NCBI GenBank assembly: GCA_965202665.1
Contig: OZ241841.1
Span: 960,001 to 1,024,000, forward strand
Origin: Candidatus Spongiisociaceae bacterium
GTDB taxonomy: Bacteria; Actinomycetota; Acidimicrobiia; Spongiisociales; Spongiisociaceae
Reading direction: 5' to 3'
Length of the DNA: 64,000 nt
Notes under the pieces: model-generated
What the model saw: only the letters and a program-made list of their open reading frames with translations
Database searches by the model: none
Told to the model about the DNA's origin: nothing
Made by a program: the position numbers and the translations under genes
In this document: piece by piece, positions 6,794 through 64,000 of the stretch
How positions within the stretch are numbered: the first letter of the stretch is position 1
Layout of the letters: each line of letters starts with the position of its first letter

Positions 6794-9700
6794 TCAGCTG
6801 CAGCCGGTGGTGTCGCCGCAGGTCAGGCAGACGAAGCAGGAGCCGTTGCGAATAGTCATATGGCCGCAGGTGGAACAAACGGGGGCGTCCCCCATCATGG
6901 TTCCGGTGTCCATCTGCCGGACAATCCGGGCCTCCGCCGCCCCGCCCGCCGCAAACCGGGATGCCGCAACCGGGACAACCTCCCCTTTCGCGTGTACGTG
7001 CGGGACAGATAGAGGGTTGTTTGCGCCGGGGTTTGGGCCGGCCGGGTTTTTAGCGCGGTAGGCCGCCTCCAACGGAGCGGGAGGAGGTTCTTCTTCGGCT
7101 CCGTCCGCAAAACGGGCGGCGACCGTCTGGGCGTCGATGTCCGACTCTTTGGCCGCCTCCGCCAGTTCCATCTGCGTGCCCGCCTCGGTCACCACCCCTT
7201 TCGGCAACCCGGGGAGTTCCTGTTGCCGGTCGGGGGGGACCTGCGCCAAATCATCCCAATGCAGATACTCCACCCCCAACGCCCGGAACACGTAATCAAT
7301 GATGGAACTGGCCATTTTGATGTTGGAATGGCCTTCCACGATTCCCCGCGGCTCGAACATCTGATGGGCGAAAGTGTTCACGAATTCTTCCAGCGGCACC
7401 CCGTACTGCAACCCTTTGCTGACCGCGATGGCGAAACAGCCCAGCACCCCCCGCAGGGTGGCCCCTTCTTTGGCCAAATCCAAAAACACCTCCCCCAGGG
7501 TTCCGTCCTCGTATTCCCCGGTGCGCAGATACACCTTGTACCCCCCGATGCGGGCCTCCTGCGTCCAACCGCCCCGGCGGGCGGGCAACAGGAACCGGGG
7601 ACGGGGATAACTGGTGTAGGCTTTGGTGGGGGAAACGCCCTCCGGAAACTGGCCCAGGAACATGGCCGCCTCCCCGGCCAAAACCTCCTCCGCTTCGTCC
7701 GGCAACTCTTCGGATTCCCCATCGCTGGAGGAGGCGGACAGCGGCTGGGAGGCTTTGGATCCGTCCCGGTAGAGGGCCATCGCCTTCACCCCCATGCGCC
7801 ACGACATCAGATAGGCTTCGGACACATCCTCGGGCGTCGCCTCGTGGGGCATGTTGATGGTTTTGGAGATGGCCCCGGAAATGAAAGGCTGGGCGGCGGC
7901 CATCATTTTGATGTGCCCGGTGTGGTGGATGAACCGGGTTCCGTAGCGTCCGTTGCGGTTGGCGCAGTCGAACACCGCCTGGTGCTCCTCCCGCAGATAG
8001 GGGGCCCCTTCCATGGTCTGATGCCCGCACACCCGGTCGTTGGCGGCCTTAATCTGCTCCCCGGTGAACCCCAGCGCCGACAGCAGATCGAACCCGGGAG
8101 CGGAATATTCGGCCTCGTCCAACCCCAGCCGTTCCATCGCCTCCGCCCCCAAAGTGAACGCGTTGCAGGCGTTGTCCAAGCCGAAGGCCCCCGGCAGGGC
8201 TTTCTCAATCCGCCCCAGGTCGTCGGCGGTCAAACCTTTGGCGGCCAAAGTCTCATGGTTGACGTAGGGGGCGCCCGCCAAAGTGGAAGAACCCACCACA
8301 TAGGTGAGTATCTCCCCGATTTGGGTTTCGTCGTAGCCGAGGCGGCGCAAAGCGGGGGAGATGGACTGGTTGGCTATCTTGAAATACCCTCCCCCGGCCA
8401 GTTTCTTGAATTTGACCAAGGCGAAGTCGGGTTCCACGCCGGTGGTGTCGCAGTCCATCACCAGCCCGATGGTGCCGGTGGGGGCCAGCACGGTGGCCTG
8501 GGCGTTGCGGTAGCCGTGGCGCTGCCCCAACTCCAAAGCCCGACCCCAGGCCCGCCGGGCCGCCTCCAGCAGATAAGACGGGCAAACCGCCGCGTCCAAC
8601 CCGGACACCTGCGCGGTCACCCCCTCGTAGTCGGAGGAGTCGTAGGCGGCCCGGCGGTGGTTGCGAATCACCCGCAACATCGCCTCCCGGTTCTCGGCGA
8701 ATTTGGAGAACGGCCCCCGCACCGCGGCCATCTCCGCCGAAGCGGCGTAGGCCTCGCCGGTGAGTATCGCCGTCAAAGCCCCGGCCGCGGCCCGCCCCTC
8801 GTCGGAGTCGTAGGCGATCCCGGAACGCATCAGCAGGCTCCCCAAGTTGGCGTAGCCCAGCCCCAAAGTCCGGTAATCGTAAGACCCCCGGGCGATGGGC
8901 GGGGACGGGAAATGGGCCATCGTCACCGAAATCTCCAGCACGATGGTCCACATTCGGATGGCGTGCCGGTAGGACTCCACATCGAACACCCCGGTCTCGG
9001 GGTCCCAGAAGGACACCAGGTTGATGCTGGCCAGGTTGCAGGCGGTGTCGTCCAAAAACATATACTCCGAACAGGGGTTGGAGGCCCGAATCTCCCCCCC
9101 GGCGGGGGCGGTGTTCCATTCGTTGATGGTGGTGTGGTACTGCATCCCCGGGTCGGCGCACGACCAAGCGGCCTCGGCGATCCGGTTCCACAAATCCCGG
9201 GCTTTCACCGTGCGACGCACCTTCCCATCCACCCGGTTGGTCAGCCGCCACTCCCCGTCTTCCTTCACCGCCTCCAGGAACTCGTCGGTGACTCGCACCG
9301 AATTGTTGGAGTTCTGGCCGGACACGGTGGCGTAGGCCTCCCCGTTGAAATCAGCCGGGAACCCGCCGTGTTCTATAAGCAACCGGGCCTTGTCTTCCTC
9401 ATCTTTCTTCCAGGCGATGAAAGCCTCAATGTCGGGATGGTCCACGTCCAAGATGACCATCTTGGCCGCCCGCCGGGTGGTGCCGCCCGATTTGATGGCC
9501 CCCGCCGCCCGATCGCCGATCTTCAGGAAGGACATCAACCCGGAGGAGCGTCCGCCGCCCGCCAGCGGCTCCCCTTCCGCCCGCAGGCTGGAAAAGTTGG
9601 AGCCGGTGCCGGAACCCATTTTGAACAGGCGGGCCTCCCGCACCCACAGGTCCATTATCCCCCCTTCGTTGACCAGATCGTCGGCCACCGACTGGATGAA

Positions 9701-41779: not shown

Positions 41780-41808
41780 TTGACAGGGGGGCGGGGCGTC
41801 TCTAAAGT
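41780..41808 (+). promoter_or_regulatory. Housekeeping sigma promoter of the inositol ABC operon
   Basis: TTGACA (41780-85), 17-nt spacer, TAAAGT (41803-08). Confidence 0.7.
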
Positions 41809-51763: not shown

Positions 51764-52639
51764 TTAGGAGCCGGGGAGCCAACGGCGGGGGCGGCGGGCC
51801 AAGTTGGGGAAACCGAGCCGGCGGCAGAGGTCGGTGAACTCCCGGCGGCGGGCCCCCCGCCATTCCAGTTCCGGCAAAGTTTCGGCCAGGGGGACGTCGC
51901 GGCGCAGGCGGGTGAGGCTCCGGTAAAGCAGGGCCCGCTCCCGGCCTTCCTCCAGGTTGGCCGACAAGCGGGCCGCCCCCCGCACCGTCGCCTCCCAATC
52001 CTCGGCTGACCGCGGGATGCGTTCCAGTTTGCCGTAGCGGGCCAGCACCGCCGCGGTCGATTTGGCCCCCCACCCGGCGATGCCCGGCACCCCGTCCGCG
52101 CTGTCCCCCACCAAAGCCAGATAGTCGGGAATGGACACCGGCGGCACCCCGAACTTTTCCATCACCCCCTCCTCATCGTAGGTTTTCTTCTCCCGCCGGT
52201 TGTGGGACACCACCCGATCGCCCACCACGCACTGCATCAGATCCTTGTCCGGACTGAGAATAACCACCTGCTCCGCCTCCCCCGACCAGCGCAGGGCGGC
52301 GGTGGCGATGGCGTCGTCCGCTTCAAACTCCCGCATCGCCCACACCGTCACCCCCAGGGCGGCCAGCGCCTCTTCGGCCAAAGGGAACTGGGCCAGCAAC
52401 TCCGGCTCCACGCCCTCCCCGGTCTTGTAGCCGTCGAACATCCGGTTGCGGAACGATTCGATCACTTGGTCGGTGGCGGCCGCCAAATGGGTTACGTCCT
52501 TCTGTCCGAGTAGTCTCATGGTGGTATCTAAAATGCCGTATACGGCGCCCACTTCGCCGCCGTCGGGAGCGCGGCGGCCCGGGAAACCGAAGTAGGCTCG
52601 GAACAACTCGTAGGTAGCGTCTAGCAGATGGAGTTTCAC
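51764..52639 (-). CDS. 5'-3' exonuclease / flap endonuclease
   Basis: LLDATYELFRAY, FRN...YK, EADD, SPDKDL.Q, DYLALVGDSADG.PGI.GWG.K. Confidence 0.9.
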   Translation of the reverse strand: MKLHLLDATYELFRAYFGFPGRRAPDGGEVGAVYGILDTTMRLLGQKDVTHLAAATDQVIESFRNRMFDGYKTGEGVEPELLAQFPLAEEALAALGVTVWAMREFEADDAIATAALRWSGEAEQVVILSPDKDLMQCVVGDRVVSHNRREKKTYDEEGVMEKFGVPPVSIPDYLALVGDSADGVPGIAGWGAKSTAAVLARYGKLERIPRSAEDWEATVRGAARLSANLEEGRERALLYRSLTRLRRDVPLAETLPELEWRGARRREFTDLCRRLGFPNLARRPRRWLPGS

Positions 52640-52640
52640 A

Positions 52641-53837
52641 ATGGAAGATGTTAGAGGGGAAGACGGGGCCGAACCCACTTGGCGGGAGGTCAACGACAAA
52701 TTTTCCGACTTGGGGGCCCGGCTGGGATCTCATTTCACCGGCGGCGAGGACGAAGAAACCGGCGAGGTCAAAGACGCCTGGGACGAGTTCAAATCCGCCT
52801 CCCGGCACTTGGGCAAAGCCCTGAGCATGACGGTGCGCGACCCGCAAGTGCGGGCCGGAGCGGGGGAAGCCTTCGGTTCGCTGGCCGGGGCCGCCGGGTC
52901 GGCGGTGAAAACGGCCGCCAAAACCACCGCCGACGCCACCCGCCGATTGGCGCAACGGGTGGGGGGCGGCCCGGCGGAGCAACCGATCGTCTCCTGCGAA
53001 TGGCTGGCCTCCCGGCTGACCGACTCCGCGGTGCGAATCGTTGACACCCGCTGGTACCTGGCCGACGTGGAACAGGGCAAACGGGAATACGAAGAGTCCC
53101 ACCTGCCGGGGGCGGTCTTCTTGGACGTGGAGGAGCATCTGTCGGCTTCGGAAGGGGCCGGCCGCCATCCGCTCCCCGACCGGGCTGAGTTCGCCGCCCT
53201 GCTCGGCTCCCGCGGCATCGGACCCGGTCACCACGTGGTGGTCTACGACCAGGGGCCGGGGGCGATCGCCGCCCGGCTGTGGTGGATGTTGCGCCACCTG
53301 GGACACCAACAGGTGAGCGTGCTGGACGGAGGGTTCGCCCGCTGGCGGGAAGGCGGCTACATAACCACCGCAACGGTCCCCGTCCCGGAACCGGCGGTCT
53401 ACCAACCGGAGAGCGGACCCACCGCCGTCATGGACCGCGACGAACTGCTCTCCCGACTGGGCGCGGTGCAAGTAATCGACGCCCGCGAGGCGGAACGTTA
53501 CCGGGGGGAGGAGGAAACGGTGGACGCCGCAGCCGGGCACATCCCCACCGCTCTCTCCGCCCCCTTCCACGGCAACCTGACCGAAGAGGGAACTTTTCTA
53601 AGCCCCGACGATTTGGCCGCCCGGTTCGCCGCCCTGGGTCTGGATCCGGAGCAACCCATCATCAGTTCCTGCGGCAGCGGGGTTACCGCCTGTCACAACA
53701 TCCTGGCCCTGCGGATGGCCGGCTTCCCGGAACCGATCCTTTACCCCGGGTCGTGGTCGGACTGGTCGGCTTCGTCCCTGCCGGCGGCCACCGGCCCCGA
53801 ACCCGGCTCCCCGCCCGCGGACGACCCCGGCGACTGA
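52641..53837 (+). CDS. Two-domain rhodanese (SseA-type sulfurtransferase) with an extra N-terminal helical domain
   Basis: HLPGAVF, GRHPLP, AARLWWML, VLDGG, DAR..RY.G, GHIP, CGSGVTAC, LYPGSWSDW. Confidence 0.88.
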   Translation: MEDVRGEDGAEPTWREVNDKFSDLGARLGSHFTGGEDEETGEVKDAWDEFKSASRHLGKALSMTVRDPQVRAGAGEAFGSLAGAAGSAVKTAAKTTADATRRLAQRVGGGPAEQPIVSCEWLASRLTDSAVRIVDTRWYLADVEQGKREYEESHLPGAVFLDVEEHLSASEGAGRHPLPDRAEFAALLGSRGIGPGHHVVVYDQGPGAIAARLWWMLRHLGHQQVSVLDGGFARWREGGYITTATVPVPEPAVYQPESGPTAVMDRDELLSRLGAVQVIDAREAERYRGEEETVDAAAGHIPTALSAPFHGNLTEEGTFLSPDDLAARFAALGLDPEQPIISSCGSGVTACHNILALRMAGFPEPILYPGSWSDWSASSLPAATGPEPGSPPADDPGD

Positions 53838-53916
53838 CCCGCAACAGGTTTTGGGGGCAACCGATCACCCAACCCGCTACCCCGCCGCCGGAGACCCCCG
53901 ACGCGGAGTTTTTGAC

Positions 53917-53943
53917 TTGACAAATTGGGGGGGGGGGTAGCGT
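53917..53943 (+). promoter_or_regulatory. Promoter with a poly-G (G11) spacer, candidate phase-variable
   Basis: TTGACA-AATT-G11-TAGCGT (15-nt spacer) upstream of giant adhesin gene 1. Confidence 0.75.
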
Positions 53944-54011
53944 TTTGCATATGCCGCCGGTTCGCGGCTCCGGTTGGCGAAACTGATATGCGGAGGAAGG
54001 GAGGTTGGGTG

Positions 54012-57000
54012 ATGCGGCGGTTGGCGGTGTTGGCGTTGGCGGCGGGGTTGGTCTGGTCGGTGTTGCCGGTTGCGCCGGCGGCGGTGGGGGCGCAGACGGT
54101 GATTACGCTCAGCGTGGTCGATGAGTCGAATACCAATACCGTGGTGACTTCGTTGGGGGAGGACGATGCTGTCGGGGGTAAGTTTTTTCATTTGAAGGCA
54201 ACGGCGGCTTCGGCGTCTAGTTCTCCTGTGACGGTGACGGTTACTCGGGGAGGCAACGCTACTGTGAGTGATCTGACATTGATCCCACTGGGTTTTGGTT
54301 TTAGGGCTGAGTGCCGCAGTGGTGATGCGTGTATGAGCTCTACCGTCTTTCTTAATGTTACCATTCCAGCGAACCAGACAAGCGGTACAACTATTTTTAG
54401 TTGGCCTGTTTATACTCGGTCAGATACGATTACGGAGGATCATGAGACCATCACCTTTTCCGGTACCGCTTCTGGGTATACGGTGAATGGGACTACTTTG
54501 ACTATCACCGATCAGGACCGGGCGATTAAGGTGGATATTCCATCGGATTTTTTAGTAATGCCGGAGAGAGGAGAAGGTGAATCTGTGAATCGAAACGGTC
54601 GTCATGTCTATTGGCCTAATTCAAGGAAGGCTGTTTTGGGTGGGGTTACGAATGGTGTGTTCACTGCTTCTACTTCTTCTACGTACAGCCAAAATTTGTC
54701 GGGTATGCGATTGAAGGTGGTAAGTGGGACGGCTACGCAATCTGAAATTTTGAGTACTAATATCGATGTCTTTCACGAGCATAATTCTGATAGTAATACT
54801 CCTTTGCAAGCTACGATAACCGCCGGATCTCTTTCCGGAGATTTTATTGGTATATATAATACCAATTCTACTTTGTCTTTGGGAATTGTAAGTGATAGGA
54901 GGGTGGAGCCGGATGAGACTTTTTATCTTAGGGTGGACCGTCCGGCGGGTTGGACCTGGTTTCAGACCCCGATAACTGTTAAGGATGCGAATCGTCGGGT
55001 GAGATTGACGGTGGATACCGATAGTGAGGCTATGGGGAATCAGGATGTGTTAACGGAAGGGGATTCCGGTTCGGGGGTGTCGGTGTCGGCTAATTTTTGG
55101 AACGCGACGTCTTCGGTGTTGCCTTCGGCGACGGCGGTGACGTTGTCGGCGGCGGCGGAGACTCCGGCGGGGGCGGGTAAGGCGACGGCGGCTGATTTCA
55201 CGTATGCTCCGTCCACGGCGAATACGATTTCTTTCCCGGCTCAGAGTGTCACTGCTTCGGGTTCGGCGACGTTGGCTGGTTTGACGATTACTGATGATTC
55301 GGTTGTGGAAGGCCCGGAAACTTTTCTGGTGAACGGGTCGTCGGTGCTGGGAACCGCTACTAAGGCGGACACGTTGACTATATATGACAATGACGCTGAT
55401 ATTGAGTTGGAGGTGTCCCCGTCATCGGTGGAGGAGCAGGCGGGGGCGCAACAGGTTACGGTGACCGCCCGGTTTAAGGGTTCATCGTCGATTTTGACAT
55501 CGGCTACTGATGTGGCGGTGACGGTAGCGGGGGCGGGCGGGGCGACTTTGTCGTCGTGTCCGGTGTCTGGCGGGAATGATGCTTGTACCAGTTTGACGGG
55601 TAATGCGACCACGATTTCCATTCCGGCGGGCGGGACGTCGGAGAGCGCAACTTTTACGGTGACGGTTCCTGATGATAGTACGAGCGAGTCGGGGGAGAAG
55701 TTGACGCTGTCGGGGACGGCGTCGGTGGGCGGGACAGCGGTGTCGGTGGACTCGGCGGATCTACCAATTATCGACGCGGGAACGCGGGTGGATTTGTCTT
55801 TGCATGAGGCGGTTAGCGGGGAAGCGGCGCTGTCCGGGATAGCGGAGGATGGAGGGGCGCGGACGGTGCGGGTGAAAGCCACCGCTGCGACGGCGGTGCC
55901 TTCGCAGACCACCATCAGCGTAAACGTGGGTGCTATGGGGGGGACGGCGACGGTGGGGATGTGCACGGGGAGCGGCCAGTCCCGGTCTTGTTCGAGCGGC
56001 GACTACGACCGGGGGTCGGCGACGGTGGACGTGACGATCCCATCGGGCGGTACGTCGGCAACCTCGGACGTGACCATTACTCCCCTTTCGGACACAACCG
56101 CGGAGGGGGAGGAAACCATCCGGTTCGCCGGTTCCGCTACCGGGTTTACGGTGTTTCCCGCGGATTTGAAGATCACGGAAACGATAGAGTTGACAGTTAG
56201 CCAAACTTCGGTGAGTGAGGGAGCGGCCAACGCCGGTGCGGCGTCGGTGACGGCTTCTTATGCGGGGGCGTCTACTTCGACGCTGACTACGGCGACGGTT
56301 GTTACGTTGTCGTTCGGGGCGGGCGAGGGAGCGGAGGCGGCGGATTTCACCGCTCCCGGAGCGGGTAGTGAGATCACGGTGAGCATCCCGGGTTCTACCA
56401 CTTCTAGTTCGGCGGTTGCTTTGACTGGTTTGCTAGTTGTAGGGGATAGGATCGCGGAGGGGGAGGAGAAGATTGATGTCGGGGGGACGGCGGATGGGTT
56501 TGTGGTGAGCGGTACGGAGCTGACGATAGCCGATGATGATCTGGGGGTGACTTTAACGGCGGACACCGATAGCGGCACGAACGGGGAGCAGCAGACTTTA
56601 CCGGAGGGTGAGGCGGCGGCGGTGCGGGTGCGGGCCCGGTTCACTTCCGCTACCACCAACGATTTGGCCGCTGTTTATGAGATTCAGGTTACCGCCGGGG
56701 AGGGTTCTCCGGTGTCGGCGACCGGCGGAGGTGTTGATTTCACCGCCCCGGGCGCGGCGGCGACGGTTACCATACCCGCCGGAACCGCCCTGCAAAGCGG
56801 TTGGGTGAATCTAACCGGCCTGTCGGTGGCGGATGACACGATAGCGGAAGGATCGGAAACTTTTCTCATCACCGGTACCGCTACAGGCGGGACGGTGGTT
56901 GCGGAGACGGTAACCATCGTCGATGACGATGTGGATGTGTCTTTGTCGGCGTCTCCGGCGGAGGTGGTGGAACAGGCGACGGCGCATCAGATAACGGTAA

Positions 57001-60000
57001 CCGCCCGTTTTCAGGGGGCCACGTCGGTGTTGTCGGCGGCTACTCCGGTGACGGTAACGGTCGGGTCGGCGGACACCAGCGGCGCGACGGTGCATACCGC
57101 GGTATGTCCTATGATGATGACAATTACAGCGGATGTGTGCACCAACCAGACGAACAATCAGTTCACGGTCAGTATCCCCGCCGGGGGTGTCAGTGGTTCG
57201 GGTTCTTTTCAGCTGCGGGCCCGCGTCGATGGGGACGACGCCGAGGGTATCGAGTATTTGAAACTGACCGGTTCTACTTCTATAGGTCAGGTGGCGTCCG
57301 CTCAGATGGGCGTTTTCGATCCGGGCCGGGCGTTTACCTTGTCTTTCCATGAGCCGACCAGCGGCGACCCGGCCCTGTCGGGGATAACCGAGGACGGGGG
57401 GGCGCAGACGGTGCGGGTGAAAGCCACCCTCGGCGCACCCGCTTCATCGTCCGCCACAGTGACCGTAAACGTAGGAACCGCAGGCGGAACCGCCACTTTG
57501 GGACCAATCGGGGATTACACCCGCGGGAGCGCTACGGCGACTATCACCATCAACAGCGGCGAAACCAGCGGAACGGCCGATGTTGTGCTCACTCCCCGCA
57601 ATGAGGGAACGGTGGAGGGGGCGGAAACCATCCGTTTCACCGCTTCCGCCACCGGCGGGTATCTGCCCGCGGTGGCTGATTTGTCGATTCTGGAAACGAT
57701 CACTTTGGCTCTCAGCCAGTCCACGGTGGATGAAAGAGACGCCAACGCGGGAGCGGTAACCGTTACCGCCTCTTTCGCGGGGGCGTCCAGTTCCTCCCTC
57801 ACCCAAGCTACGGATGTAACTTTGTCGTTTGGGGCGGGTGAGAACGCGGAGGCGGCGGATTTCACCGCCCCCGGCGCGGCGGTGACGGTGACCATTCCCG
57901 CTGGTTCTACTAGTAGTTCGGCGGTTGCGTTGAGCGGTTTGCTGATTACCGGGGATACTATCGCGGAGGACGCGGAGAGTATCAACATCGACGGTACCGC
58001 CGGGGGGTTCGCGGTTAGCGGAACGACGCTGGTCATCACCGACGACGACCTAGACGTAACCCTGACGGCGGACACTGACAGCGGAGAAAACGGGAATCAG
58101 AAAACCCTGTCGGAGGGCGGGACGGTTGCGGTGCGGGTACAAGCCGCGTTCGCCACCGCCACCAGCAACGACATTGGGTCTGCTTTGCAAGTACGCGTAA
58201 CCGCGGAGGCTTTATCACCGGCGTCGGCCGAGGCGGGGGGAATCGATTTCACCCCTCCCGCCACCCCGGTTACGGTATCCATCCCCGCCGGGCAAACCCA
58301 GAGTGCCTGGACGAACCTGACCGGACTGGCGGTAACGGACGATGCGGTAACCGAGCTGGCGGAAACGTTCAGAATCGCGGGGACGTCGGTGAACAGCGGC
58401 GTGGGGATTACCCCGGATACGTTGACTATCGGAGCCAGCGACACCGCTTTGGAGGTAACCGCCTCGCCGGGGTCGGTGACGGAAAGCACCAGCGCCCACA
58501 ACATAACGGTCACCGCCGGGTTCGCCGGAGCCACCTCCTCCGTACTAGCAACCAACACCGACGTAACGGTAACGGTAGCGGCCGGGGACACCAACGGGGC
58601 CACGGTGGCGACAGCATGCTCTCAGTCGATGACCGAAGATGTGTGCACCGACCAGACGGGCAACTCGTTCACTATCCGCATCCCGGCTGGTCAGCACTAT
58701 CACACGGGCTCGTTTCAGCTGACAGCCCGAGTAGACACAGACCCGGAAACTACTGCGGAAACGGTGAAAATCAGCGGCTCGGCCACTGTCGCCGGAACAG
58801 CCGCCTCCGACACCGCCACCATCAACATAGCCGACAGCGGCATCACCCTCGCCCTAACCAACGCCTCCGATAGCAGCGCCCTGTCCGCGTTGGATGAAAA
58901 CAGCGGAACAACCACCATACGGGTTACCGCCACCCTGCCGGTGGCAGCCCCCGCCGGGGGTGCGGTAGTGGGCCTGGAGATAGACGAGGACAGCACCGCC
59001 ACCGTAGATTCCAACCGCGTCTGGACCAACCGGGAAGACTACCGGGTGGTTTGGCCCGCCAAACCGAGCGGAACCCCCTCCGGATACGCCACCGGCATCG
59101 CCGTCCCCGCCGGCTCCACCACCGGCCACGCCGACATCCAAATCACCATCAACGACGACAACGTCGACGAGCCGGCGAGGAGGATAGAAATCAACGGCAG
59201 CCATGTAAACATCAACAGCGTGGATTATCACACGGTAGCCGCCGCTTTGACTCTGAACGACAACGACGACCCCCCCACCGCTATCACCCTCACCCTGCAC
59301 AGCACCCGCGCCGACAGCAGCGGGGAACACCTCACCCAAGCCCACGAAAACCAAGAAACCCGGGTACGGGTAATAGCCGCCTTCCAAGGAACCGCCACCC
59401 GCTCCGCCGCCACCTTCGTACCCATCGTAGTCGGCAAAACCGCTACCGGGGAAGCCACGCCGGGAACCGACTATCAAACAGTAAACACCTTCAACGTGCG
59501 AATCTCCGGCTACCAAACCCTAGGAGCCGACACCTTCCTCCTCAAAACCGACGGAACATACAACGACAACGCCTTCGAAGGACCGGAAACGCTAACCGTC
59601 GCCGGCGGAACCCTCGCCAATTTCACCATCGCGCAAGACACCCTCACCATCATCGACGACGACCTAACCGTCGCCCTCACCCTCACCCCCAACCAAGCAA
59701 CCGAAGGAACCACCAACACGTCCGTAACCTTGCGGGCCGCCTATCCGACCGGGGAGACCCTCCCCAACCCCCACACCATAACCCTGGGCCGCGGGGGAAC
59801 CGCCGCCGCCGCCGACTACACCGCCCCCGCCCTCACCCCCCTAACCATTCCCGCTAACCAAAACAGCGCCACCCGAACCCTCAGCCTGCCTATCACCGAC
59901 GACAGCATCGATGAACCAGACGAAACCATACAAATAACCGGAACCTCCGCCGGAATCGCCATCGAACCCGCCGTCTTCACCATCGAAGACAACGACGACC

Positions 60001-61118
60001 CACCCACCGGCATCACCCTCACCGTCAACCCCGCCAGCCTGCCCGAAGGACAAACCAACCGTCAGATCACCATCACCGCCCGGCTAGACGGCTCCACCAC
60101 CCGATCTGAAGCCACCCAAGTGGCTATAACCATCCCCGGCCCCGACAGCACCGCCACCCCCGCCGACTACCGAATCACCAACCAGCCCACCACCATAACC
60201 ATCCGCCCCGAAACACAATCCGGCTCCGGAACCTTTAACATAACCATCCCCAACACCGACGGCCCCGAACCAAACGAAACCCTCCAAATAACCGGCGCCG
60301 CCGTCGGGTTCACCACCATCACCCCCGCCGTCCTCACCATCCGCAACAGCGCACCTCCGTCGCCCCCAACCACCACACCAAACCCACCCACCGGAGGAGG
60401 TGGAGGAGGAGGGGGGGGCGGCGGTGGAGGCGCGCCTCCTCCGGCCGCGCCGCCCCCCGCGGGCGGAGGAGGTGGTGGCGGAGGAGGGGCCCCACCCCCC
60501 GCCGCGCCCGCACCGCCGACCGCGCCGGTGGTCTGCCAGGGTCGGTTCTGCGACGACGACGGCAGCGTCCACGAAGACAACATCGAGTTGATGGCCATAT
60601 GGGGAATAACCATCGGATGCGACGCCAACGACTCCACCAAATACTGCCCCAGCGCCCAAATCACCCGCAGGCAAATGGCCACCTTCATCTACCGCGCCGT
60701 CAACCCCCGCTGGCCCATCCAGTTCCCCACCGGCATAGAAATAGCCGACGTCCCCGCCGACGCCAGCTACCGCCCCTACGCCAACTGGCTAGTCAGCATC
60801 GGGGCGTTCCAACTAGACGACGGGAACTTCAACCCCCGGGGCATAGTAACCCGAGCCGACATGGCGGTCATGATGGTAGCCGCTTTCCCCCACATCCAAG
60901 CCGTATCCGAATCCCAAAACCTGTTCGCCGACACCGCCAACCTGGACGCGGCCGTGGTGCGGGCCATCGAAGGCATCGCCGAAAGCGAAGTGACCAGAGG
61001 ATGCACCACCACGCCCCCCCTCAGATACTGTCCCAACAACCCGGTAACCCGCGCCCAGATGGCATCCTTCTTCGTAAGAGTAATCAACCAAGCCCCCACC
61101 ACCACCGACGAATCATAA
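54012..61118 (+). CDS. Giant secreted surface protein: signal peptide, Calx-beta/Ig-like repeats, Pro/Gly linker, three C-terminal SLH domains
   Basis: MRRLAVLALAAGLV signal with RBS GGAGG; repeated A....D(Y/F)...TIPAG...DD...E..ET...LTI.D.D modules; FCDDDGSVHE..I...GIT.GC...YCP...TR.QMA SLH motifs. Confidence 0.88.
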   Translation: MRRLAVLALAAGLVWSVLPVAPAAVGAQTVITLSVVDESNTNTVVTSLGEDDAVGGKFFHLKATAASASSSPVTVTVTRGGNATVSDLTLIPLGFGFRAECRSGDACMSSTVFLNVTIPANQTSGTTIFSWPVYTRSDTITEDHETITFSGTASGYTVNGTTLTITDQDRAIKVDIPSDFLVMPERGEGESVNRNGRHVYWPNSRKAVLGGVTNGVFTASTSSTYSQNLSGMRLKVVSGTATQSEILSTNIDVFHEHNSDSNTPLQATITAGSLSGDFIGIYNTNSTLSLGIVSDRRVEPDETFYLRVDRPAGWTWFQTPITVKDANRRVRLTVDTDSEAMGNQDVLTEGDSGSGVSVSANFWNATSSVLPSATAVTLSAAAETPAGAGKATAADFTYAPSTANTISFPAQSVTASGSATLAGLTITDDSVVEGPETFLVNGSSVLGTATKADTLTIYDNDADIELEVSPSSVEEQAGAQQVTVTARFKGSSSILTSATDVAVTVAGAGGATLSSCPVSGGNDACTSLTGNATTISIPAGGTSESATFTVTVPDDSTSESGEKLTLSGTASVGGTAVSVDSADLPIIDAGTRVDLSLHEAVSGEAALSGIAEDGGARTVRVKATAATAVPSQTTISVNVGAMGGTATVGMCTGSGQSRSCSSGDYDRGSATVDVTIPSGGTSATSDVTITPLSDTTAEGEETIRFAGSATGFTVFPADLKITETIELTVSQTSVSEGAANAGAASVTASYAGASTSTLTTATVVTLSFGAGEGAEAADFTAPGAGSEITVSIPGSTTSSSAVALTGLLVVGDRIAEGEEKIDVGGTADGFVVSGTELTIADDDLGVTLTADTDSGTNGEQQTLPEGEAAAVRVRARFTSATTNDLAAVYEIQVTAGEGSPVSATGGGVDFTAPGAAATVTIPAGTALQSGWVNLTGLSVADDTIAEGSETFLITGTATGGTVVAETVTIVDDDVDVSLSASPAEVVEQATAHQITVTARFQGATSVLSAATPVTVTVGSADTSGATVHTAVCPMMMTITADVCTNQTNNQFTVSIPAGGVSGSGSFQLRARVDGDDAEGIEYLKLTGSTSIGQVASAQMGVFDPGRAFTLSFHEPTSGDPALSGITEDGGAQTVRVKATLGAPASSSATVTVNVGTAGGTATLGPIGDYTRGSATATITINSGETSGTADVVLTPRNEGTVEGAETIRFTASATGGYLPAVADLSILETITLALSQSTVDERDANAGAVTVTASFAGASSSSLTQATDVTLSFGAGENAEAADFTAPGAAVTVTIPAGSTSSSAVALSGLLITGDTIAEDAESINIDGTAGGFAVSGTTLVITDDDLDVTLTADTDSGENGNQKTLSEGGTVAVRVQAAFATATSNDIGSALQVRVTAEALSPASAEAGGIDFTPPATPVTVSIPAGQTQSAWTNLTGLAVTDDAVTELAETFRIAGTSVNSGVGITPDTLTIGASDTALEVTASPGSVTESTSAHNITVTAGFAGATSSVLATNTDVTVTVAAGDTNGATVATACSQSMTEDVCTDQTGNSFTIRIPAGQHYHTGSFQLTARVDTDPETTAETVKISGSATVAGTAASDTATINIADSGITLALTNASDSSALSALDENSGTTTIRVTATLPVAAPAGGAVVGLEIDEDSTATVDSNRVWTNREDYRVVWPAKPSGTPSGYATGIAVPAGSTTGHADIQITINDDNVDEPARRIEINGSHVNINSVDYHTVAAALTLNDNDDPPTAITLTLHSTRADSSGEHLTQAHENQETRVRVIAAFQGTATRSAATFVPIVVGKTATGEATPGTDYQTVNTFNVRISGYQTLGADTFLLKTDGTYNDNAFEGPETLTVAGGTLANFTIAQDTLTIIDDDLTVALTLTPNQATEGTTNTSVTLRAAYPTGETLPNPHTITLGRGGTAAAADYTAPALTPLTIPANQNSATRTLSLPITDDSIDEPDETIQITGTSAGIAIEPAVFTIEDNDDPPTGITLTVNPASLPEGQTNRQITITARLDGSTTRSEATQVAITIPGPDSTATPADYRITNQPTTITIRPETQSGSGTFNITIPNTDGPEPNETLQITGAAVGFTTITPAVLTIRNSAPPSPPTTTPNPPTGGGGGGGGGGGGGAPPPAAPPPAGGGGGGGGGAPPPAAPAPPTAPVVCQGRFCDDDGSVHEDNIELMAIWGITIGCDANDSTKYCPSAQITRRQMATFIYRAVNPRWPIQFPTGIEIADVPADASYRPYANWLVSIGAFQLDDGNFNPRGIVTRADMAVMMVAAFPHIQAVSESQNLFADTANLDAAVVRAIEGIAESEVTRGCTTTPPLRYCPNNPVTRAQMASFFVRVINQAPTTTDES
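54983..55498 (+). repeat. Near-identical direct repeat, copy 1 (partner at 62398-62913)
   Basis: Direct comparison by eye at offset 7415 shows only scattered substitutions. Weaker similarity continues to about 56590 (paired with 64000). Confidence 0.9.
55794..58847 (+). repeat. Two internal ~1.5-kb super-repeats in adhesin gene 1
   Basis: LSLHE...ALSGIAEDGGARTVRVKAT (55794) and LSFHE...ALSGITEDGGAQTVRVKAT (57339); a more diverged third start at 58848. Confidence 0.8.
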
Positions 61119-61199
61119 CCCATCCCCCGCCCTCAGGTTTCCCCACCCCCCCCCCCCGGTTAAGGAATCCCCTCCGCTGGGTTATCACCTTCCCTGCGT

Positions 61200-61235
61200 C
61201 AGAGGGTTGCCGAATCCCCGGTCGGTGACCCTTTG
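61200..61235 (+). terminator. Stem-loop downstream of adhesin gene 1 (possible terminator)
   Basis: CAGAGGGTTGCCGA pairs with TCGGTGACCCTTTG, including G-U pairs. Confidence 0.4.
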
Positions 61236-61324
61236 GCATAGCTGTTGAGTATTGCTTCATCGGCTCTCCGCGCAGCCGAATTGGGCAAACGGCGGTTCAA
61301 CACCTCCGCTGACGCGGGGGCAAT

Positions 61325-61351
61325 TTGACAAATTGGGGGGGGGGGTAGCGT
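61325..61351 (+). promoter_or_regulatory. Promoter with a poly-G (G11) spacer, candidate phase-variable
   Basis: 29 bp identical to 53917-53945 (TTGACAAATT-G11-TAGCGTTT). Confidence 0.75.
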
Positions 61352-61408
61352 TTATCGCAATTGGCCCTGATAAGGGCTGGGCCGGAAGCGAAAGATGGAG
61401 GTTGGGCG

Positions 61409-64000
61409 ATGCGACGGCTTGGGCTGTTGGCGTTGGCGGCGGGTTTGGTCCTGTCGCTGTTGCCAGCCGTGCCTGCGGTGATGGGGGCGACGGCGATTAC
61501 GTTCAGTTTGGTTGATCCTTCGGGCAACGCGGTGACCTCGGTGGGGGAGGACAGCGGTTCGAAGGTTGTGCGGTTGAGGGCGTCGGTGGCTTCGGCGCCG
61601 TCCTCCAATTTGCAGATTAGCATCAGTCGGTTGTCCGGTACTGCCACTCAAGGAACGCGTATAGATTTGAATAGGTTTGATCCGGGTCGTCCTCCGAGGC
61701 TTGTTTGCAATTCTGGTGATTACTGTGCTAATGAGCCTTGGAATTTAACTATTCATAGGAATCAAACAAGTGTTACGTCTACTAATTTTACGATTGAACT
61801 GCGGTCGGATAGGATTACGGAGGAGCATGAGACCATCATTTTTTCCGGTTCCGCTTCTGGGCATACGGTGACTCCGGCTACTTTGACGATTACCGATCAG
61901 GACCGGGCGATTAAGGTGAACATATCGCAGGATACGTTACGGGAGAGGGGAGAAGGCGAATCTATGAGTGGACTCTATAGTCATTTGTTTGAACCCACGA
62001 TAACGGTTGTGGTGGGTGGGGTGACGAATGGCGTGTTCACTGCTTCTACTTCTTCAACATACAGCCAAGCTTTAGCGTACAGTGAATCAAATACGACAAA
62101 TATGAGAATACTGACACAGGCGGGAACCGCTGGGGTGATAGACACGGTCAATCAGAATGCCTATTATAATACGGATGTCATTGTAGACCATAATAGTGAT
62201 GGTAATGATCCTATAGGTGTGAAGATAGCCGCCAATTCGGTTTCCGGGACTACCCATTTTGTGTCTGGCGGCGGTAGCATAACCTACCAACTACGAATTA
62301 TAAGGGATGGGGTGGTGGAGCCGGATGAGGTTGTTTATGTTAGGTTGAACACCGTCCCGTCGGGTTGGACGGTGTTTAGGACCCCGATAACTATTCAGGA
62401 TGCGAATCGTCGGGTGAGCTTGACGGTGGATACCGATAGTGAGGCTATGGGGAATCAGGATGTGTTAACGGAAGGGGATTCCGGTTCGGGGGTGTCGGTG
62501 TCGGCTAATTTTTGGAACGCGACGTCTTCGGTGTTGCCTTCGGCGACGGCGGTGACGTTGTCGGCGGCGGCGGAGACTCCGGCGGGGGCGGGTAAGGCGA
62601 CGGCGGCTGATTTCACGTATGCTCCGTCCACGGCGAATACGATTACTTTCCCGGCTCGGAATATCACTGCTTCGGGTTCGGCTACGTTGGCTGGTTTGAC
62701 GATTACTGATGATTCGGTTGTGGAAGGCCCGGAAACTTTTCTGGTGAACGGGTCGTCGGTGCTGGGAACCGCTACTAACGCGGACACGTTGACGATATAT
62801 GACAATGACGCTGATATTGAGTTGGAGGTGTCTCCGTCGTCGGTGGATGAGCAGGCGGGGTCGCAACCGGTTACGGTGACCGCCCGGTTTAAGGGTTCGT
62901 CGTCGATTCTGACGACTGCTACAAATGTGACGGTGTCGGTGGCGGGGTCGGGTGGGGCTTCTTTGGGTTCGTCGTGTCCGACTACTAGCGGGCAGGATGC
63001 TTGCACTAATTTGACTAATAATCAGATGACGGTGTCTATTCCGGCGGGTGCGACGTCGGGGACCGGAACGTTTATGGTGACGGTTCCTGATGATAGTACG
63101 AGCGAGTCGGGGGAGAAGCTGACGCTGTCGGGTTCGGCGTCAGTGGGCGGGACGGCGGTGACGGTGGAGTCGGTGGATTTGCCGATTGTGGATGTGGGGA
63201 CGCGGGTGGATCTGTCGTTACATGAAGCGACGGCGGGCGAGGCGGCGCTGGCGGGGATAGCGGAGGGTGGGGGGGCGGAGACGGTGCGGGTGAAAGCTAC
63301 GGCGGGAGCGGCGGTGACCTCGGATACGACGATTAGCGTGAATGTGGGGGCGGCGGGGGGTACGGCGACGTTGGGGACATGCACGGGTAGCGGACAGTCC
63401 CGGTCTTGCACAAGCGGCGACTACGACCGGGAGGCGGCGACGGTGGATGTGACGATCGCGTCGGGTGAGACTTCCGGGACGGCGGATGTGACGATCACTC
63501 CCCTGTCGGATACGGTGGCGGAGGGGGAGGAAACGGTTCAGTTCACCGGTTCCGCCGCCGGGTTTGCCGTGTTCCCCGCGGATTTGAAAATCACCGAAGA
63601 GATTACGTTGACCCTCAGCCAGCCGTCAATAGGCGAGAGCGCGACGAACGCGGGGGCGGCCACGGTGACGGCCGCGTTCGCGGGGGCGTCTACTTCGGAG
63701 TTGACGGGGGCGACGGTTGTGACGTTGTCGTTCGGGGCGGGCGAGAACGCGGAGACGTTGGATTTCACCGCTCCCGGCACCGCGATCACGGTGAGCATTC
63801 CGGCTTCTTCCACCTCCAGTTCCGCTACCGCTCTGACCGGTTTGCTGATTACCGGGGATTCGATCGCGGAGGGGGAGGAGAAAATCGATGTTGGGGGGAC
63901 GGCGGATGGGTTTGTGGTGAGCGGAACGGAGCTGACCATAAACGACGATGATCTGGGGGTTACCTTAACGGCGGACACCGACAGCGCCACCGGGCAGCAG
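61409..64000 (+). CDS. Second giant surface protein, paralogue of 54012-61118 (runs off the window; absent from the ORF track)
   Basis: RBS GGAGG and ATG at 61409; MRRLGLLALAAGLVLSLLP signal. Colinear with gene 1 and still in frame at the window end (DDDLGVTLTADTDS). Confidence 0.88.
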   Translation, partial: MRRLGLLALAAGLVLSLLPAVPAVMGATAITFSLVDPSGNAVTSVGEDSGSKVVRLRASVASAPSSNLQISISRLSGTATQGTRIDLNRFDPGRPPRLVCNSGDYCANEPWNLTIHRNQTSVTSTNFTIELRSDRITEEHETIIFSGSASGHTVTPATLTITDQDRAIKVNISQDTLRERGEGESMSGLYSHLFEPTITVVVGGVTNGVFTASTSSTYSQALAYSESNTTNMRILTQAGTAGVIDTVNQNAYYNTDVIVDHNSDGNDPIGVKIAANSVSGTTHFVSGGGSITYQLRIIRDGVVEPDEVVYVRLNTVPSGWTVFRTPITIQDANRRVSLTVDTDSEAMGNQDVLTEGDSGSGVSVSANFWNATSSVLPSATAVTLSAAAETPAGAGKATAADFTYAPSTANTITFPARNITASGSATLAGLTITDDSVVEGPETFLVNGSSVLGTATNADTLTIYDNDADIELEVSPSSVDEQAGSQPVTVTARFKGSSSILTTATNVTVSVAGSGGASLGSSCPTTSGQDACTNLTNNQMTVSIPAGATSGTGTFMVTVPDDSTSESGEKLTLSGSASVGGTAVTVESVDLPIVDVGTRVDLSLHEATAGEAALAGIAEGGGAETVRVKATAGAAVTSDTTISVNVGAAGGTATLGTCTGSGQSRSCTSGDYDREAATVDVTIASGETSGTADVTITPLSDTVAEGEETVQFTGSAAGFAVFPADLKITEEITLTLSQPSIGESATNAGAATVTAAFAGASTSELTGATVVTLSFGAGENAETLDFTAPGTAITVSIPASSTSSSATALTGLLITGDSIAEGEEKIDVGGTADGFVVSGTELTINDDDLGVTLTADTDSATGQQ
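62398..62913 (+). repeat. Near-identical direct repeat, copy 2 (partner at 54983-55498)
   Basis: Direct sequence comparison. Confidence 0.9.

Follow-up and report, generated by a model that had tools for sequence, protein, structure and literature searches.

What does a run of eleven guanines do inside a promoter? The question is raised by a 64,000-nucleotide (nt) stretch of DNA, hereafter the window (G000:C1:960001-1024000), in which two neighboring genes for giant surface proteins are each preceded by a promoter-like sequence carrying such a run in its spacer. The source genome (G000) is a single 2.77 Mb contig of 64% G+C, and the bacterium itself is, we infer, a sponge-associated member of the Acidimicrobiia. 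Fifteen of the 23 sequencing runs listed, sponge metagenome and marine metagenome runs among them, contain at least half of its words, and a contig from a run labelled sponge (X4) shows 7 differences from the genome over 1438 letters. Judging from comparison of the cassette across this genome and its relatives and from length variants in sequenced samples, the feature is probably a system of transcriptional phase variation acting through promoter spacer length. Coordinates up to 64000 follow window numbering; promoter 1 and gene 1 (53917 onward) are referred to as locus 1, and promoter 2 and gene 2 (61325 onward) as locus 2.

A shared promoter-like cassette precedes two paralogous genes

The 29-mer TTGACAAATT-G11-TAGCGTTT occurs letter for letter at 53917-53945 and 61325-61353. 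At both sites, as the original prediction had stated, the G run lies between a perfect -35-like box and a TAnnnT box separated by 15 nt, and the promoter at 41780 that had been offered for comparison does carry a 17-nt spacer (TTGACA-17-TAAAGT). When up to three mismatches were allowed, the first 18 letters of the 29-mer matched the window twice, both times exactly, against 0.21 matches expected; two matches of this 18-letter pattern were reached in 4 of 100 shuffled windows. The sequence around the two copies had been described as diverged, which holds for the immediately adjacent letters but not farther on: the ribosome-binding site and the signal-peptide codons realign about 50 nt downstream, and the copies are therefore homologous promoters of paralogous genes rather than independent inventions. 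A reading of the run as a coding switch, in a frame opening at TTG 53925 and passing through the Gs, was rejected, since the start falls at ATG 54012, judging by the ribosome-binding site and signal peptide; in most copies of the cassette no open frame crosses the run.

The cassette recurs across two surface-protein families

The two genes first noticed do carry the cassette, but the search of the genome for further members, which had been proposed along with them, returned a family of 24 sites of the form TTGACA-N4/5-G11-13-(T)-TAnnnT, the third copy lying 4.6 kb past the end of the window. All except one of these sites (23/24) lie upstream of secreted SLH proteins, which fall into two families. 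Family A accounts for 14 sites, upstream of proteins of 1841-4473 amino acids (aa) with a C-terminal SLH region and a Calx-beta-like stalk. Family B accounts for nine, upstream of N-terminal-SLH proteins of 1180-1402 aa with Big and FG-GAP matches; seven of its genes are clustered, one stands apart and one more was found among the open reading frames (ORFs) with long runs. An SLH region sharing at least 69% identity with that of gene 1 is found at 14 loci, exactly the 14 cassette-bearing family-A genes, so that all close paralogs of gene 1 bear the promoter G run; the comparison locus by locus covered these 14, a further 29 SLH-region matches being weaker.

The remaining site (G000:C1:846179-846205, linker AAAC) lies at a restriction-modification (R-M) locus, with a short ORF remnant and then a methylase-HNH gene downstream. 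The N-terminus of the remnant resembles a 900-aa methylase of G001, a genome of the same genus, in which a cassette with the same AAAC linker stands upstream of the intact 900-aa N6-methylase gene (L038/L088).

In G001 the initial pattern matched 36 times, with runs of G11-G19. It matched five sites in G004 and three in G009, both of a sister genus, and a looser -35 pattern found more in both. The pattern of TTGACA and G run was not found in 37 of 40 relatives (the unpublished G039 included) or in five further genomes reached through named loci; many of these assemblies are incomplete or fragmented, and "not found" is accordingly not to be read as "absent". In G013, also of the sister genus, no TTGAYW-type site was found among 44 long runs. 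The array at the window has itself a limited distribution: in G001 the rhodanese gene that lies upstream of promoter 1 directly adjoins a stretch matching G000 1036368-1037810 (rplA, by eye), and at this site G000 therefore carries a three-gene array, about 22 kb long, that G001 does not have.

Spacer lengths point to a candidate length-dependent promoter

To ask whether the sequence behind the run behaves as a -10 box, sites were collected with no -10 element demanded in the search. A TAnnnT hexamer lay 0-2 nt behind the run in 24/24 sites of G000, 36/36 of G001, 6/6 of G004 and 9/10 of G009 (the last two being the subsets fetched), or 75/76 in total, against 1/51 of the other long runs of G000. 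Twelve hexamer forms were seen (TAGCGT, TAGTAT, TAGGGT, TAAAGT and TAGCAT among them), with T1, A2 and T6 fixed in all; these are the positions that matter in the -10 box of sigma-70/SigA promoters. The -35 box is TTGACA or TTGATT, and perfect TTGACA is present in all 60 sites of G000 and G001.

The preferred spacing in this organism was gauged from TTGACA...TAnnnT pairs of G000 that contain no G run. Such pairs peak at spacers of 17 (n = 22) and 18 (n = 22), with six at 16, two at 15 and 1-10 at each other distance within 10-25; G11 is therefore predicted to be off or weak, G12 partial and G13-G14 full. The proposal that G11 would be the weak or OFF state is thus upheld as a prediction, whereas ON is shifted from G12-G13 to G13-G14, with G12 intermediate. 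The spacers of the G-run promoters straddle the 17-18 optimum, covering 15 (n = 8), 16 (n = 11) and 17 (n = 5) in G000 and 15-23 in G001 (32 of 36 at 15-16, none at 17, one at 18), with G11-G13 seen at locus 1. An extra base lengthens the fixed part of the spacer from four to five in nine of the 24 copies in G000. The five copies at 17 nt lie at G000 positions 7146, 1466357, 1579484, 1587569 and 2454366, and four of them combine the five fixed bases with G12.

In the mechanism that we propose, sigma-70/SigA RNA polymerase would use the two boxes, and the G run would likely gain and lose bases by replication slippage, shifting the spacer among 15 (predicted off or weak), 16 (predicted partial) and 17-18 nt (predicted full). 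Spacer length would then set the transcript level, producing random switching of each downstream surface gene that would be reversible within a clone. With most copies below the optimum, a cell would display only a few of the roughly 23 large wall-anchored proteins at a time, in changing combinations, and the extra fixed base of nine copies would lower the ON run length from 13 to 12.

The same spacer counts can be read differently, as those of a real promoter working at 15-16 nt through its -10 box and the Gs that precede it, with graded tuning at low to medium expression and no switching. Many actinobacterial promoters are driven mainly by the -10 box, and nearly all copies do lie at 15-16 nt (19/24 in G000 and 32/36 in G001). 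Runs of G13 or more are scarce in promoters, as if selected against (1/24, versus 22/51 of the other runs; nominal P = 0.0004, which is overstated given that the copies are not independent), although selection against long runs would also be expected where the ON state is costly. The invariance of TTGACA in 60 sites indicates that the -35 box matters, and ordinary TTGACA promoters of this genome number only two at 15 and six at 16 against 44 at 17-18, which makes a promoter of this kind an unlikely explanation.

Run-length variants appear in contigs of sequenced samples

Under phase variation by spacer length, mixed run lengths would be predicted at individual loci, and Logan contigs from four sequencing runs (X2, X4, X7 and X10) were compared at the two promoters, with eight length records examined per run. 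The flanks of locus 1 (53909-53926 and 53938-53955) are each unique in G000. At this locus, X10 contains G11 at depth 16, G12 at 26.9 and G13 at 8.5, with flanking depths of 38.5 and 44.4; X7, in which two haplotypes are present, contains G11 at 34.5 and G12 at 39.5; and X4 contains G12 at 3.8 and G13 at 2.6, which may be errors. The long left contig of X10, X4 and X7 alike breaks off at the run's final G, as it would at a branch. Polymerase chain reaction stutter mostly shortens runs, and among the records listed for X10, X7 and X4 there is no G10 contig at locus 1. At locus 2, +G contigs occur in all four runs without being separated from paralogs. The tract-length heterogeneity that the original prediction had looked to as a check is suggested at locus 1 by the contigs of X10 and X7 and weakly by those of X4, but not by the records shown for X2. 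The variation at locus 1 is suggestive of switching within a clone but does not prove it. Logan contigs fragment at G runs and along paralogous genes, and a feature of this type is therefore easily missed in draft genomes.

Several observations weigh against phase variation as the explanation. X2, which is identical to G000 over 52500-53941 at a depth of about 115, passes locus 1 as G11, and there is no locus-specific variant among 8 of its 24 records. The variant records are short, with 9-18 letters per side, under the 31-letter bridging standard, and the flanks of the variant contigs are proven unique in G000 only; locus-specific lengths are drawn from a narrow layout around locus 1. Strain mixtures or in-vitro polymerase slippage could give part of the length signal. 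The copies of the cassette are paralogs, and counts and Fisher tests overstate their independence. The consensus of G001 would have almost all of its copies off, and also fits 16 nt as a working spacing. Finally, read-through from upstream could blur the independent control of each gene.

The read data also bear on the view that run length is fixed in each strain, that the variation seen is strain polymorphism together with sequencing and assembly error, and that the run is kept for DNA shape or for a shared regulator. The uniform G11 of X2 agrees with it, as does the conservation across copies of the AATT/AATC linker along with the boxes, and in-vitro polymerase slippage and erroneous homopolymer lengths are a known problem for G tracts (PMC9187656). 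Yet the copies range from 11 to 19, which is not how a binding site behaves, the observed variants are mostly expansions, and runs of the same length class set the reading frame inside R-M and signal-peptide coding sequence. In X2 itself a paralogous promoter type, with two copies in G000, appears as G10, G11 and G12 (depths 39, 79 and 70). We regard a fixed run length as improbable. The earlier reading of the run as a spacer-length switch driven by slipped-strand mispairing finds partial support in the TAnnnT pattern, the 17-18 optimum, the length variants of locus 1 and the clustering of runs in surface and R-M genes.

Read-through and the independence of neighboring genes

The original prediction would have each surface protein switched independently. 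No terminator-like site or stable hairpin was found upstream of promoter 1, behind the rhodanese gene, and some tandem arrays have only about 25 nt between a stop codon and the -35 box that follows, a tight fit for any terminator; read-through may therefore couple neighbors. Between the two window genes a hairpin at 61200-61235 may insulate promoter 2 from gene 1; it was not called by the terminator scan.

Taken further, these observations would suit a scenario in which the boxes are a relic copied along with the 5' end of each gene and transcription comes by read-through from upstream genes. In its favor, no terminator was found between the rhodanese gene and promoter 1, some arrays have the 25-nt gaps, and at neither promoter was there a call by the terminator scan or by the consensus promoter scan, the latter covering spacers of 16-18 nt only. 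It is, nevertheless, very improbable: the boxes are conserved across copies while their flanks decay, the -10 hexamer varies at tolerant positions only, and the cassette is also found before isolated genes, genes of the second family and R-M genes.

Genes of the sister genus carry a second run

Of 13 run pairs fetched from G009, 12 belong to genes of families A and B (loci L177-L188) and consist of a run in the promoter region and another where the signal-peptide codons end. With G11, as in nine genes, this coding run keeps the frame; with G12, as in three, it does not. One pair fetched from G004 (L190) is similar, being out of frame at G13. One G009 gene finds its best G000 match in gene 1 (65% over 283 aa, with the paralog at 492430 almost level); it is preceded by TTGATT-AATC-G11-TAGCAT, which has the same G11, 15-nt geometry as the window promoters. 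A different geometry was noted in the G009 family-B genes L177, L178, L181 and L187, where TATAAT or TATAGT lies 9-10 nt behind the promoter run; there the shorter run may be the ON state.

Long G/C runs are abundant and concentrated in surface and R-M genes

The distribution of G/C run lengths in G000 is bimodal, with 96 runs of 8, one of 9, none of 10 and 75 of at least 11, for which the decay from lengths 6-8 predicts 0.15-2. These 75 long runs comprise the 24 promoter spacers, 27 in R-M or DNA-methylase ORFs, three in defence-like ORFs, three at other surface genes and 18 with no class given. The R-M ORFs include Type ISP-like, N6/N4 methylase, DUF1156, HsdM/HsdS and Eco57I-like genes, and seven runs of the R-M or defence-like classes lie in the overlap between the parts of a split ORF. 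The Gs of 56 of the 75 lie on the strand richer in G, which is likely the leading one. In G001 there are 81 long runs, none of exactly 10, and the sister genera, with 74 in G004, 76 in G009 and 44 in G013, do possess runs of exactly 10, unlike the sharp floor at 11 in G000 and G001. The other 21 members of the family have 0-45 long runs and 16 genomes of other families 0-15. NucS is present in five of five genomes, and MutS_I was not found in any of the five, which are 91-96% complete. Indels of 1-2 bp escape repair by NucS of M. smegmatis (PMC11551767).

Two loci stand out among these runs. A tandem of three Type ISP-like R-M genes at G000:C1:1214500-1233500 (L063) contains 11 long G runs; in two of the genes, the ORF is broken at a run close to the C-terminal specificity domain. 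A run of G33 at G000:C1:640404-640436, which may be an assembly artefact, lies at the end of a 607-codon open frame with no Pfam or NCBIfam match.

A broader model, which we advance tentatively and as the less likely outcome, would have these elements form a genome-wide combinatorial switchboard. A portable cassette would control 23-36 giant surface genes and some R-M genes; G11 would act as a mutational floor and hence an OFF default, with the fixed extra base setting the odds of ON; about 27 runs would vary methylases and restriction enzymes; and the sister genus would need two switches ON. Were this so, each cell would show its own small surface subset to a host without antibodies, and phages, innate recognition or fit to the host strain would therefore come into consideration as the selective force.

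The downstream proteins resemble wall-anchored adhesins

SLH was found in all eight family proteins scanned; Calx-beta scored above the cut-off in one and below it in two. The N-terminal 300 residues of gene 1 share 25-52% identity with seven paralogs, while most of the remainder shares 60-99%. A structure model of residues 29-363 (335 residues; predicted local distance difference test score, pLDDT, 84; 27 sequences) is all-beta, with immunoglobulin-like (Ig-like) sandwiches. Its match to CALX-CBD1 (Z 8.8, root-mean-square deviation 3.1, 105 aligned) is tied with matches to BT_3987 (Z 9.0) and other Ig-like domains; NCX1 CBD12 was matched with E-values of 1e-6 to 8e-8, and look-alikes in the Atlas are Calx-beta clusters at 0.92.

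The signal peptide, tandem Ig-like/Calx-beta domains and surface anchor of a Calx-beta/Ig-repeat adhesin are thus present, and there is no Cys in the signal-peptide region of gene 1 or gene 2. The earlier description of the pair as giant adhesins would draw on the Calx-beta/Ig-like stalk and the SLH anchor; no ligand-binding domain and no specific lectin or adhesin tip stands out in the structure matches of the gene 1 N-terminal model. NCBIfam gave no name for either window protein. A variable tip on a conserved wall-anchored stalk, as the model and the paralog comparison would have it, fits an adhesin.

Relation to known systems

The homopolymer spacer-length mechanism is textbook knowledge, poly-G/C phasomes and phase-variable R-M methylases are part of the general picture of Campylobacter, Helicobacter and Neisseria, and the vlp family of Mycoplasma hyorhinis has about seven members. 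The closest parallels are porA of Neisseria meningitidis and tp0126 of Treponema pallidum, surface-protein genes in which a G homopolymer in a sigma-70-type spacer undergoes one-base shifts around a 17-nt optimum; tp0126 is transcribed best when its poly-G gives a spacer of 17, and porA is shut down by a shorter one (PMC7864442). Those are single genes of human pathogens with a measured effect on transcription, whereas the one cassette of this uncultured sponge-associated actinobacterium precedes 23 surface genes of two families and an R-M locus, with 36 sites in G001, and its effect is predicted from sequence. In vlp, as here, every family member has the same promoter homopolymer and combinatorial ON/OFF states are possible (PMC10502178), but that homopolymer is poly-A and the products are small lipoproteins, in contrast to poly-G and SLH-anchored proteins of 1200-4500 aa; the present family also has more members, and its cassette is common to two protein architectures.

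The sortase-pilus switch of Bifidobacterium breve UCC2003 likewise involves an actinobacterial host-associated commensal and G-run slippage acting on surface structures (PMC9187656). It differs in being an intragenic frameshift at two loci, and so resembles the coding run of G009 and G004 rather than the promoter run; the discussion mentions other G tracts in promoter spacers without studying them (PMC9187656). The phasomes of Campylobacter, Helicobacter and Neisseria share with G000 dozens of long G/C runs focused in surface and R-M genes (PMC5953494). Here, by comparison, a third of the runs are candidate promoter-spacer switches that share a single design, the run-length floor stands at 11 (G000 and G001 lack runs of 10), and NucS is found rather than MutS.

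What is new is the host group, the larger scale, the use of one cassette across two surface-protein families and R-M genes, and the second, frameshifting run of the sister genus. We found no paper on such switching in sponge symbionts or Acidimicrobiia in a literature search of partial coverage, and a mention in a genome paper or its tables is possible. The mechanism is known mostly from vertebrate pathogens and commensals, and the present case suggests that random variation of the cell surface is also of use to long-term symbionts of animals that have no adaptive immunity. Calx-beta proteins are enriched in sponge Actinobacteriota according to a study whose main text contains neither "phase varia" nor "homopolymer" (PMC11706023), and for these proteins our finding is a lead to function. 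The system offers a direct test, in that run length per locus can be compared with expression, host individual and phage pressure.

Features of the window and its surroundings

The features of the two loci, together with the neighboring gene and the reference promoter, are collected in Table 1. No counterpart of the intergenic C12 run behind gene 1 was seen within 170 nt downstream of the 20 other family genes inspected.

Table 1. Coordinates of the promoter elements, genes and neighboring features in the window
Feature	Position	Strand	Evidence or remarks
Rhodanese-family gene, upstream, same strand	52641..53837	+	Stop 80 nt before promoter 1; possible read-through
-35-like box TTGACA, promoter 1	53917..53922	+	Sequence; same in 24/24 G000 copies
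G11 run, promoter 1 spacer (15 nt)	53927..53937	+	Sequence; G11/G12/G13 in Logan contigs with locus-unique flank
-10-like box TAGCGT, promoter 1	53938..53943	+	T1, A2 and T6 kept in 75/76 sites of four genomes
GGAGG ribosome-binding site, gene 1	54000..54004	+	Sequence
Gene 1, 2368 aa	54012..61118	+	Signal peptide, variable N-terminal ~300 aa, Calx-beta/Ig-like stalk, Gly/Pro linker, C-terminal SLH
SLH domain, gene 1 residues 2245-2285	60744..60866	+	Pfam PF00395, E 1.1e-7, passes curated cut-off
C12 run, intergenic, just behind gene 1 stop	61146..61157	+	Sequence
14-pair GC-rich hairpin without U tail, possible terminator	61200..61235	+	RNA fold z -2.6 and -3.2
-35-like box TTGACA, promoter 2	61325..61330	+	Sequence
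G11 run, promoter 2 spacer (15 nt)	61335..61345	+	Sequence; +G contigs in four runs, not separated from paralogs
-10-like box TAGCGT, promoter 2	61346..61351	+	Sequence
GGAGG ribosome-binding site, gene 2	61397..61401	+	Sequence
Gene 2, gene 1 paralog, C-terminal SLH	61409..64000 (continues past window; 2385 aa in genome)	+	
Reference promoter TTGACA-17 nt-TAAAGT, upstream of ABC substrate-binding gene	41780..41808	+	

Beyond the window, short direct repeats (AAGTCACCGACC-like) lie behind the third gene of the array, at G000:C1:1035803-1036000. Two of the three 4450-aa genes, at 2217490 and 2454366, sit directly behind what appears by eye to be a tRNA 3' end, a position in which integrated elements are often found. 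Eighteen metagenome matches to the motif were set aside, as they are without the TAGCGT box and look unrelated. Unrelated AT-rich metagenome contigs (L191, L192, L196, L198, L199, L203 and L205; 25-33% G+C) carry TTGACAAATT-G10/11 with TATACT or TATAAT no more than 1-2 nt behind the run; these are apparently convergent poly-G spacer promoters.

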